DNA of 64,000 nucleotides, taken from NCBI GenBank assembly GCA_951406725.2, contig OX597834.1, forward strand, positions 45,880,001 to 45,944,000, read 5' to 3'. This DNA comes from Octopus vulgaris (Eukaryota). The notes under the pieces are model-generated. The model did no database searches. It was not told the DNA's origin and saw only the letters and a list, made by a program, of their open reading frames with translations. Below are positions 15,862 to 42,974 of the stretch, piece after piece; the first letter of the stretch is position 1, and every line of letters begins with the position of its first letter. Made by a program: the position numbers and the translations under genes.

Positions 15862-15960
15862 ATTGGCGCACTCATCTCCCGCGCGTGCGAACACGCACGC
15901 ACGCACTCACACAAAATAACAAAAATATAAATAAATACATAAAACCAGCTTCCTGAGTAA
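15862..15960 (+). promoter_or_regulatory. Candidate Pol II promoter of a + strand transcript
   Basis: Reverse CCAAT (ATTGG 15862-66), CpG-rich patch tcccgcgcgtgcg, TATAAATA at 15926-33; lies at the start of the TE-poor structured zone. Motifs are short, so this is inference. Confidence 0.3.
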
Positions 15961-18900
15961 CATAAATCAACATCCCCACCTTTATCGTCACACCACCTGA
16001 CCAACCTACCACACGAGCGCCAACATTTCAACGCAACTACAGTTTTATCAACACCTTCACCACGAACATCATCCCACCTACCACCACATAAATAGTGCTG
16101 CAGTATATGGATGGTATCACATCGTATAAAAACGTGTATGAATGTATTTTTTAATGAGAGAAATGAAAGTATTTTCTCCGTGAATTCATATTTAGGCCTT
16201 ACATATATTTTGTTATATTATATATATATTTTACTCATGGTCATTAAGTGTTCAATTATGAATTTATTTTTTGTATATAATTTCACTTTTGTATGTTATT
16301 TTTCATGTCTTTTTCATTTTTCAGATTTTGACTATGATGAGTATTTTCCCGCGATACAGTGACTAGAATACAGTGTTTGTTCGTTATATTTTCTTGTCTG
16401 TACTACGTGTTGTTATTATTATTATTATTATTATTATTATTATTATTATTATTATTATTATTACTACTACTACTACTTATGCATATAGTAGCAGTAAAAA
16501 TAGTAGTAGTAGTAGTAGTAGTAGTAGTAGTAGTAGTGTCTTGGGTCTTCGTCTCGTATTTCATAGGGACAATCCTTTGTTTCCTAAATTGATAAACTTA
16601 CGTAATATCATCACTATTCTCATCTTCAAGCAACAACATGATTCCTAATAGGAGTAACCATTAGTAGTAATATCATCAAGCGTTATATCCGTTATTATTA
16701 TTATCATTATTATTACTGGTGGTAGTAGTAGTAGTAGTAGTAGTAGTAGTAGTAGTAGTAGTATTAGTAGTAGTAGTAGTATATGTCGGTGTCATGAACA
16801 TCTGCATCATTGGCCTTACAACATATTTTTTTCTTGTTATTCCTAAATATATTTGATAAGAATTTTCTCTTTTCCTTTCTTCCTATCTCTCTAACTATCG
16901 AGAAGAAATTATGAGTAGATATTACTGTTTCCTTTTTGTGTTTTTTATTTATTTTTTTGTTGTTGTTGTTTTTCGTTTATTTGCTAGTCGTTTCAGGAAT
17001 ATTGTTACCGTCAGTGTTATTGTTGCTGTTGTTTTTGATATGGTTCTGTTGTTGTTTTAAATACGGTTGTGTTATTTTTTCCGGTTTCCCAGTCAAGTAT
17101 TTAAAATTTATTGAGATATTTTCATACGATTGATTGATATTAATGGCTTGCTCATAGACTTCATCTCCATTTTCCTCTCTTTTCTTATTTTTCTCCTTCA
17201 GTTCCTTGTCTAGTTCTCATAGTTATTTGACATCATATAATATGTAGTACATATAAACCTAGCCACAAATATACCATATACACATGTACGTATGTACGTA
17301 TATAGGTATATATTTGGATACATATAGATATATATGCATATACATACGCATGGATATATATATATATGTTTATATATGTATATATATTTACATATATTTA
17401 TATATATATGTGTGTGTATGTATATGCATACATGCATACATACATACATACATACATACATACATATATATATATATATATATATATATATATATATATA
17501 TATATATATACATATACAAATCATTATTTCACAAGTCTCAGTTCTTCAAGACATTTCATGTGTAAGCTGTTCGCTATTTCTTGCTTGTCTTGATTTCTTT
17601 TTAATTCCCTGGTTTATTCTTTATAGCTAGTTGTCGTTTGTGAGGTTTCTAATTTATCTGAAATTTTTCTCAGTTCTCTTTCTGTATTTTATTGGAAATT
17701 AGAACAGATGAAAGCCAAATTTTCTCACCATGTTTTTTTTTAATGGCATCAGCATGTTTTTAGTCTTTCGGATTTTGATTATAAAATGGTGTTCTCTTTG
17801 TTGGGAGTGGAACATTTGTAGCATTAAACGTTACGCAAAATTTAAAAACATTATCTATACAGTAACTGGAAATCCATTTGAATATGAACAGTCACACACA
17901 AAACATATATATGTACATATATGCCCGTGAGTGTGTATGTATATAGGTAGATAAATAGATAGATAGATAGATAGATATATAGATACATAGATAGATATAT
18001 AGATAAATATATATATATATATATATAGATTGATTGATAGATAGATACATAGATAGATAGATAGATAAATACATAGATAGATAGATAGATAGATAGATAG
18101 ATAGATAGATAGATAGATAGATAGATTTTTATTTATAAATGGATACATTTATAAAAATACATATGTATTGATGGCGGTTTTACACATGCAATATAAGGAA
18201 AATATTTTAGCAAGACTGACGAAAGAGCAAAAACCTAAAGTTTAAAGCTAAACCAAAGAATATATCAAGAAATTTTAAATTGGAAAATCACAATTACAAG
18301 AAGAGAAAGTTTACTGCAAAGGTGATCACAGTTTAGACGAAGATTTAATTATTAAATAGTTACCTTCATAATTACATTCCGTTAAGAAAATTGCCTAGCG
18401 ACAACGATAATATCTCTTTAAACGAAAACTCAGAAAAGAACGAAGCAAATGTATGTATATATATATATCTCCATACTTAAATGCATTCATATACATCTGT
18501 GTAAATATTTATATATATATATCTTTATATATATATATATATATATATATATATATATATATATATATATATATATATATATTTGTGTGTCCTTGTGTGT
18601 ATTGGTGTGTGTGAGTGTGTATTTCTGTATGTGCATGTATGTTTTGGAGCGTTCTGTAGAAAAATAGACTTGTAAACAAGTGAGGAATATCTTGTTTGAA
18701 AGTAATATTTCAGTTTATTTCATTTAATCTTTGTTTTAGCATTGTCTCGAGGAATTAGATGTACTGATAATTTTTGGCTGATGTTTTACGGTTTACTAAT
18801 AATGAGGTAGATACGATAGCAACAGATAAGGAACCTACATACGTATACACATGCATAATAGACAATCAGTCTTAAATACTGACATACATTTGTAGATAAG

Positions 18901-41632: not shown

Positions 41633-41655
41633 GGGTCGGGATGGGAGGGTGGGGG
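41633..41655 (+). other. G-quadruplex-forming motif
   Basis: GGG-TC-GGG-AT-GGG-A-GGG-T-GGGGG, five G-runs with 1-2 nt loops. Confidence 0.7.
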
Positions 41656-42974
41656 AAAATTTGCAGTAACTTTCCCAGCAAGCACCTCATAATAACTTAT
41701 ATCATATACATTTATATATATGCATCTGTCTATATATATATATGTATGTATGTATATAAATATATACATACATTTCCATTTATGCTTAAGCGTATGTACA
41801 CATATGTATATATATATACATATATATGTATATATATATAATACGCATATATACATATATATATATGTTTATATATATATATATATATATATATATATAT
41901 ATATATAATTACGCTCTGTATTATAGTAAAATATTACTTTTGAAACCTATAACAAATCATAGCAATTTTTCGGTTTTTTTTTCACTTTTTTCATTTTTTT
42001 CTTTTTTCAGATTTGTATTACGTTTATCCATGTGATGCATCTTCTCTTACTTTGTATATATATATATATATATATATATATATATATATATATATATATA
42101 TGCATGTGTATACCTAAGTATGTATATTGACATTTATACATATGTATGCATGCACATATGTACATCGATGTGTATATATGTACGCATATATATACATATA
42201 TATATATATACACATATATAGAGATACATACGTATGTTAAATATGTATATATATATATATATATATATATACTTATATATTTACAGATTATCTTATCTTG
42301 CGATTTTTAGATATAATAGATTTTATTACCAATATATATTATTTAGGTTTCATGCAAATGTCTGTTGATTTATTGACTGTAGTAATAGTAACAGTAGTAG
42401 CAGCAGTATTATTATTAGTAGTAGTATTAGTAGTAGTAGTAGTAGTAGTAGTAGTAGTAGTAGTAGTAGTAGTAGTACCCTTCATATTACTAATGTTATC
42501 TTACGTACACCAATATCATTATTATTTTTATTATTATCATTATTATTATTAATATTATTATTAATATTATTATTATTATTATTATCTTTATATCATTATT
42601 TTTATACTCATTATTTTAATATACATCTATTGTTGCCTATGAGGTTTTTTTACCTTTCATAGTAATATTTACTTAATTTCTCTTTTTTTTTTCTTGTTTC
42701 ATTTTTTTATTTTCTTCATTATCATATATTTAGAAATTTCGTTTTTATTATTCTTTTGGTAATTTCTCACTTTTTTCCTAATTTCCTTCTTTCATTCTTT
42801 TCTCCCATCAAAATTTCCAAATATGACCGTCAGACGGAGCTAGACTATATGTCGGTGTTGGCTATGGTTGGTCACTGTGAGCCTATTTTTGCTAGCTATG
42901 AGCAGTAAATCCAGTCTGAGTGTGTGTCCGAAAGATTCAGTCACTCACTGGTTTAACAGAGACCTAGACGTACT

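Follow-up and report, generated by a model that had tools for sequence, protein, structure and literature searches.

What kind of sequence fills a stretch of some 27 kb that is nearly free of transposable elements (TEs) and holds no credible open reading frame (ORF)? The question is raised by positions 15862–42960 of a window of 64,000 nucleotides (nt) from Octopus vulgaris (G000:C21:45,880,001–45,944,000, in a genome of 2.8 Gb; positions below count from the first letter of the window), in which the sole host gene is a Ly6-type gene on the minus strand. A first-pass annotation had proposed here a highly structured non-coding RNA on the plus strand, converging on the Ly6 gene and kept by selection, either as a scaffold-type long non-coding RNA (lncRNA) or as a giant 3′ untranslated region (UTR). 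The second option gives the best reading, with the strand reversed. In our analysis the zone is probably a very long 3′ UTR of the minus-strand Ly6 gene itself, with several ends, rather than a plus-strand RNA converging on it. That this UTR measures at least 5–9 kb is highly likely; that it reaches perhaps ~27 kb, ending maybe near an AATAAA at 15855–15850 or further left, has somewhat less than an even chance. This reading rests on the edge of the zone at the Ly6 stop codon, the distance to the first repeat, a composition typical of sequence behind stop codons, and the shares of the zone's words found in assembled sequencing runs.

The zone behind the Ly6 stop codon

The right edge of the noted region (42960) is the Ly6 stop codon, and the TE-free zone starts there. 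Since the zone adjoins this stop, it lies where the 3′ UTR of the gene must begin. Coding exon 2 (61122..61256, minus strand, AG/GT ends) and the last coding exon (42975..43231, minus strand), joined at canonical splice ends as 61256–61122 and 43231–42975, reproduce letter for letter the tail of the public Octopus vulgaris protein P0007, which has 153 amino acids, a 462-nt reading frame and the UniRef label quiver. The last exon is single copy in the genome and contains a CCxxxxCN motif, a hydrophobic tail of the glycosylphosphatidylinositol (GPI) type and the stop. The Ly6/quiver-like protein shows an LU-type cysteine pattern, together with a signal peptide and the GPI-type tail (both judged by eye), and its 12 cysteines and hydrophobic tail are common to relatives in Argonauta and other assemblies. 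Exon 1 lies ~221 kb further right on C21. With an intron 1 of ~221 kb (C21:45941260–46162120), this 153-residue protein spans ~250 kb or more.

Interspersed repeats were identified with a home-made library, obtained by self-comparison of 664 kb, made up of 40 scattered tiles of 10 kb and 264 kb surrounding the locus, after masking of simple repeats. They account for 1.5% of the non-simple sequence in 15862–42960, against 24% in window positions 1–13000, 14% in the 43–61 kb intron and 30% on average in the 40 tiles (lowest 4.2%). Two elements were found where 17.6 were expected from an outside density of 0.65 per kb (154 elements over 237 kb; Poisson P 4e-6, although the region was chosen post hoc and the library is small). 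The scarcity of TEs between the flanks, on which the first-pass annotation had built, was therefore borne out. Its span of 13–43.5 kb needs correction on the left, where old repeat fragments at about 13.0–13.25, 13.7–13.85 and 13.9–14.2 kb push the edge to ~14.2 kb; the clean zone runs from ~14.2 to 44.4 kb. Both elements inside the region had been noticed before. The short interspersed element (SINE) reported at 32260 is indeed a multicopy element, SINE-like and older (32252..32434; 73–81% identity to its copies), the name SINE being that of the earlier annotation. The fragment at 25.5 kb, called doubtful at the time, is a true multicopy dispersed repeat and a young one (25509..25658; 87–91% identity to copies on many chromosomes). 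The genome-wide DNA searches scored few candidates (39 of 10,593 for the 25.5-kb repeat and 40 in each of three others), and did not extend over 33.5–43 kb, so rare old repeats may have escaped them. At the 100-kb scale, TE coldspots have been described in this species (PMC13282606).

The sequence behind 20 intronless G-protein-coupled receptor (GPCR) reading frames of the octopus served as a comparison set. In the first kb after these stops, 37% is simple repeat and 5% TE, with a GC content of 0.320; at 6–9.5 kb beyond them the values are 24%, 27% and 0.356. The region, with 33% simple repeat, 1.5% TE and a GC content of 0.336, alike in its three thirds, has the composition of sequence directly after octopus stop codons. 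Moreover, the first repeat appears 10.5 kb past the Ly6 stop, a greater distance than in any of the 20 receptor genes (141–9636 nt, median 2.6 kb). A TE-poor, microsatellite-rich, low-GC zone that extends from a stop codon is thus the ordinary post-stop signature here and gives no evidence of a structured lncRNA. Such a signature may be used to predict the extent of UTRs and to reassign 'intergenic' single-cell reads.

In agreement with the earlier report of no credible ORF, none of 28 ORFs tested from 12.4–40.5 kb matched Pfam at its cut-off. The only coding piece in the region is a 17-codon exon, the alternative last coding exon of the public isoform P0006 (31030..31082, minus strand, annotated junction). 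This isoform leaves the last Ly6 exon at an internal donor (43112, GTGAGT) and continues at 31082 across a 12,029-nt GT–AG intron, by which it loses 4 of the 12 cysteines and the GPI-type tail. Because no relative shows such a form, the splice may be noise. The published annotation method adds alternative isoforms from transcript alignments (10.1101/2023.05.16.540928).

Transcription, strand and extent

For 33400–43300, 24 runs were listed, and 17 of them, from 6 studies and under two organism labels, were flagged as probably RNA, with assemblies of 31–199 million letters. These 17 assemblies contain 0.53–0.69 of the words of 33400–43300, a genome-sized run contains 0.69, and the coding exon and intron supply just 0.035. 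Runs X21–X24 contain 0.04–0.05. Assemblies of 1–7% of the genome size could not contain so much of this stretch as random DNA, and hence 33.4–43.3 kb is very probably transcribed. The word shares require cover to at least 38.1–36.5 kb (5–7 kb), and to 34.3 kb and beyond (at least 9 kb) if repeat words cannot be retained. We place the proximal part of the putative 3′ UTR at 33400..42974, presumably on the minus strand, on the basis of these 17 assemblies.

A distal extension, likewise presumed to be on the minus strand, would cover 15829..33399, where composition and TE depletion stay the same. Near its end, one of the four runs aligned at 15806–16410, the probably-RNA run X1, has an unspliced stretch (15806..16410) in a 654-nt contig with 0 differences and no joints, which continues past both ends. 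On the minus strand, which has many AATAAA sites, the one at 15850..15855 precedes a U-rich stretch and is a candidate distal poly(A) signal. The words of 33.4–43.3 kb are present to 0.63 and 0.55 in runs X5 and X13, which show at 15806–16410 only short repeat-like pieces; since a filter omits some records, this gives no evidence either way. Run X19, of unknown kind, has a contig ending at 15829, that is 21 nt beyond the AATAAA of the minus strand, and a single T>C difference at 15981 (A>G on minus; single run, no duplex there, z −0.43); neither was used as evidence. A metagenome scan gave 25 pattern matches, none of them to a relative.

The RNA could have another origin. The mature Ly6 message may be short, the assembled sequence may be read-through or intron RNA, and TEs may be excluded at the DNA level, for example by dense enhancers of a 250-kb gene. 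Indeed, 31083–43111 is an intron in P0006, TE-poor gaps of 7–8 kb also occur inside Ly6 intron 1, and the library types are not on record. However, assemblies of 31–199 million letters cannot contain most introns of a 2.8-Gb genome, and as many as 17 of them from 6 studies contain most of this 10 kb. The post-stop composition, with a GC content below that of the introns, also speaks against this origin, and we consider read-through or intron RNA quite improbable.

For the strand, we infer from sequence features that the RNA is on minus. This is favoured by the adjacency to the stop, the GT–AG junction of P0006, the polarity of microsatellites, and a predicted long-range helix (discussed below) that pairs fully on minus only. 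The region and the Ly6 introns agree in microsatellite polarity, with a score of +24 when minus is taken as sense and GATA:TATC ratios of 1:5 in the region vs 4:19 in the introns. In the introns themselves (43240–61110 and C21:45941260–46044000), the sense strand has TATC 19 vs GATA 4 and CAA 14 vs TTG 0, a bias that possibly originates from selection against AG acceptors and is weakly reproduced behind GPCR genes. Strand classifiers based on k-mers from the 20 GPCR flanks were right in 12–17 of 20 leave-one-out tests and were not applied.

Several observations weigh against a long minus-strand tail. The polarity score was right in only 12–13 of 20 control genes, contigs carry no strand information, and the P0006 junction is annotation only. 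The RNA status of the 17 runs is a program flag together with the size argument, none of them being on record as RNA, and the run comparison covered word shares for 33400–43300 and contigs for 15806–16410. As the X1 contig agrees with the window in every letter, it may share the window's own source; this contig also passes the AATAAA at 15850, and no poly(A) loose end occurs in contigs at 15806–16410. Finally, in 15.9–27 kb AATAAA occurs 2 times on plus (shuffles 6.1, P 0.055) and 22 times on minus (shuffles 14.9, P 0.04), and these counts, together with the U-richness of plus, fit a plus-strand RNA there at least as well.

The last of these observations leads to a picture of convergent transcripts, in which a Ly6 3′ UTR of ~10–15 kb and an unstructured plus-strand RNA at ~15–27 kb, either non-coding or belonging to the tail of some distant gene, would both end at 27–35 kb. 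In keeping with this picture, AATAAA counts change to 13 (plus) and 15 (minus) in 27–35 kb, the AT skew changes from −0.126 in 15.9–27 kb to +0.03, and the X1 contig at 15.8–16.4 kb is strandless. However, the stretch at 35–43 kb beside the Ly6 stop, which is very probably transcribed, has the same skew (−0.11), and sequence after the 20 GPCR stops is neither U-rich nor AATAAA-poor on the sense strand. Among the 90 of 347 candidate ORFs tested in the 143 kb left of Ly6 there is no host exon, and only transposase and integrase pieces were found (three matches to non-TE families fell below the cut-off and were not accepted); nor is there a host exon among the ORFs tested over 100 kb to the left of the window. 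In addition, the repeat polarity of 15.9–27 kb is +11.6 for minus, although this is a weak test, and no splice joint occurs in the X1-covered stretch 15806–16410. Convergent transcription is therefore unlikely in our view, and the long Ly6 3′ UTR stays the preferred explanation of the whole zone.

Folding, stems and promoter-like signals

The region had been called highly structured, with folding z-scores against shuffles and against the 43–61 kb intron proposed as a check. We calculated z against shuffles for repeat-poor 120-nt windows on both strands, in one grid and in a second, shifted grid. In the first grid, the mean z of the region (n=96) was −0.22 on plus and −0.31 on minus, compared with −0.28/−0.27 in the left flank (n=93) and −0.04/−0.03 in the 43–61 kb intron (n=94). 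The region was not above the controls (rank tests p 0.51 and 0.82; plus vs minus p 0.59); only its minus strand was slightly off zero (p 0.014), and the left flank likewise in mean. In the second grid, 94 region windows matched 150 receptor-3′-flank and 95 intron windows (p 0.14–0.92). The fraction of windows with z<−2 on plus in the first grid does favour the earlier description (region 10%, left flank 6.5%, 43–61 kb intron 1%), but in the second grid such windows number 8 of 94 in the region, 4 of 95 in the intron and 9 of 150 in the receptor flanks. Thus the region folds no better than ordinary surrounding DNA on either strand, and the description as highly structured does not hold.

Fourteen islands had been named as sites of nested multi-stem folds. 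Taking the best of 3 windows, z<−2 was reached in 5 of them on plus and in 5 on minus (one half microsatellite), compared with 2 of 20 and 1 of 20 unselected controls, and z<−3 on plus was reached in 3 of the 14. Some named islands are therefore real local hairpins, with no strand preference and in a region that as a whole stays at background. Stems of at least 8 bp numbered 24 on plus (shuffles 20±4.7) and 21 on minus (17.6±2.6). Pairs of the G.U type, which had been taken to mark the plus strand, occur in 19 of the 24 and in 17 of the 21 stems, as in shuffles and controls (~80%). When stems are judged by eye on a single strand, G.U pairs are admitted and A.C pairs passed over, hence the impression of a G.U bias. 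The two stems quoted as examples (32166–89 and 38646–89) are present in the sequence; on plus, the windows that contain them score z −1.7 and −0.9.

Mismatch-tolerant long-range duplexes on plus numbered 28, against 11±4 in shuffles, within a two- to six-fold excess. The excess is equal in control DNA on both strands (of 16 control strand-regions judged by the same cut-off, 4 give for instance 28, 33, 27 and 26 duplexes), and it was dropped as a plus-strand property after these real-DNA controls. At curated thresholds, Rfam gave no match in the region, and microsatellite-like microRNA models alone were seen among the 150 of 248 weak matches inspected. The region's tandem arrays consist of microsatellites and short composites of these, with no higher-order repeat modules.

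Promoter and splice motifs behave in the same way. The proposed CCAAT+TATA element exists as a reverse CCAAT (ATTGG, 15862) and a TATAAAT (15926) at 15862..15932 on plus. Such pairs occur at 0.15–0.30 per kb (every 3–7 kb) on both strands everywhere, that is, the element is at chance density and has no promoter support. The X1 contig reaches ~100 nt upstream of it and crosses it unbroken, although contigs cannot show starts. Plus-strand splice signals are also present, and they are no more frequent than on minus (donors 11 vs 17, acceptors 7 and 7). We also rejected a last exon on plus that would start from the acceptor at 16326; the X1 contig crosses this acceptor unbroken, and the covering contigs show no joint or loose end.

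These results bear directly on the model of one 27-kb plus-strand scaffold lncRNA, made of modular folds and starting from the CCAAT+TATA near 15.9 kb. It would account for the TE depletion, for the few true hairpins (such as the three islands below −3 on plus) and for more plus-strand duplexes than in shuffles. However, neither strand rises above background in folding, stem counts or G.U use, the duplex excess is as large in control DNA, the promoter pair is at chance density and crossed by the X1 contig, and neither Rfam matches at curated thresholds nor higher-order modules were found. Dosage-compensation lncRNAs had been named as a parallel, with assignment of the locus to Z or an autosome as a check; the locus is on C21, and the Z marker Amnionless maps to C16. 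We regard this model as highly improbable, and return to the long minus-strand Ly6 tail.

Several individual helices deserve description. A predicted 17-bp long-range helix joins a 5′ arm at 41670..41686 on minus with a 3′ arm at 38654..38670, 3 kb downstream on the same strand, by 16 Watson–Crick pairs and 1 G.U. It is GC-rich (−32.2 kcal/mol), with unbroken pairing on minus only, and was reached by 0 of 100 shuffles; among 6 control regions, 1 contains an inverted repeat that is stronger, though short-range. The arm sequence has three occurrences genome-wide, two of which are these arms and the third on C11. This pair might place proximal poly(A) signals in a loop, or it might be the relic of a small inverted duplication.

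Real hairpins cluster at 23.95–24.7 kb, in single-copy DNA, and the best one is on minus, a long imperfect hairpin of 76 nt at 23955..24030 (z −4.75 on minus, −2.5 on plus). It is followed by a nested hairpin at 24080..24140 (z −3.6 on plus, −2.2 on minus) and by a perfect 10-bp hairpin at 24643..24667, which forms on both strands. Rfam gave no match at the 23.9–24.7 kb hairpins. The hairpin at 23955–24030 is a possible editing substrate or small-RNA precursor; with regard to a microRNA precursor, four short motifs had no match in 65,650 readable characters of the PMC9699675 supplements. The strongest-folding sequences of the window lie outside the region, in two fold-back elements with long inverted arms at 3920–4260 and 5316–5787 (z to −12.7 at 4051). 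The same flank holds a stretch at 1200–3100 that is G-skewed on plus (GC skew 0.32–0.49), has no repeat-library match and no Pfam match in 10 ORFs and is perhaps a decayed element, and a broken mariner-type transposase at 8650–9870 (Pfam Transposase_1, E 2e-10).

A putative long Ly6 tail and known systems

If the zone is the 3′ UTR of Ly6, polymerase would pass AATAAA sites in large number and end the transcript at points that differ between cells, by alternative polyadenylation, and a message up to 98% non-coding would carry a surface protein of 153 residues. Transposon insertions may then be purged, as they would bring poly(A), splice and pairing signals into the mature message, and microsatellites would be tolerated in the tail, as is seen after other octopus stop codons. 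By analogy, the tail may serve RNA-binding proteins and microRNAs as a linear platform and thereby set stability, transport or translation; it would hold a few local helices and no folded scaffold. A more elaborate version, which we offer as doubtful, is a switch that combines a 3′ UTR of at least 27 kb, the 17-bp helix looping 3 kb near the stop, and the 12-kb splice that swaps a GPI-anchored Ly6 for a truncated, unanchored one. At full length, the tail would be among the longest 3′ UTRs in an invertebrate. Such a tail would stand at the extreme of the long neural 3′ UTRs that have been connected with the expansion of microRNAs in octopus, and could serve to study the formation and use of tails of this kind. 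Our literature search found no description of this locus; two octopus re-annotation data sets may already contain the extension.

Structured scaffold lncRNAs of the Xist, roX and NEAT1 type are characterized by stable folding, a promoter of their own, repeated structured modules and covariation. In the Ly6 zone, folding does not rise above background and repeated structured modules do not occur. The octopus itself has sex-specific lncRNAs, Zmast and Zfest, of 18 and 13.8 kb, which are Z-linked, and Zfest overlaps Amnionless (10.1101/2024.12.09.627507). The likeness to our zone is multi-kilobase non-coding transcription. The differences are in position: Amnionless exons lie on C16, whereas the Ly6 zone lies on C21, directly next to a coding stop.

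On the protein side, the octopus Ly6 shares with Drosophila quiver/sleepless and other GPI-anchored Ly6 proteins the signal peptide, the LU-type domain with CCxxxxCN and the hydrophobic tail. It differs in its 12 cysteines and in a Pfam QVR score of 14.3 bits, below the cut-off of 27.3. 'Quiver' would thus seem to be a database label for this gene rather than an established orthology. In flies, the Ly6-type family tunes potassium channels and acetylcholine receptors (PMC4735452).

For the tail, the likeness is to neural 3′ UTR extensions, in which a very long non-coding tail is likewise attached to a small, probably neural message and many poly(A) signals are bypassed. An ELAV-type mechanism lies behind these extensions. 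Octopus 3′ UTRs have a median of 350–380 nt and are longest in nervous tissue, and tandem poly(A) sites have been described in 4,800 genes (PMC9699675); the putative Ly6 3′ UTR would be 15–70 times this median. Octopus gene ends have been lengthened by up to 60 kb in re-annotation (PMC9712504). The neural 3′ UTR extension of Drosophila mei-P26 reaches 18.5 kb (PMC7279237), compared with up to 27 kb for the tail that we propose in the octopus.

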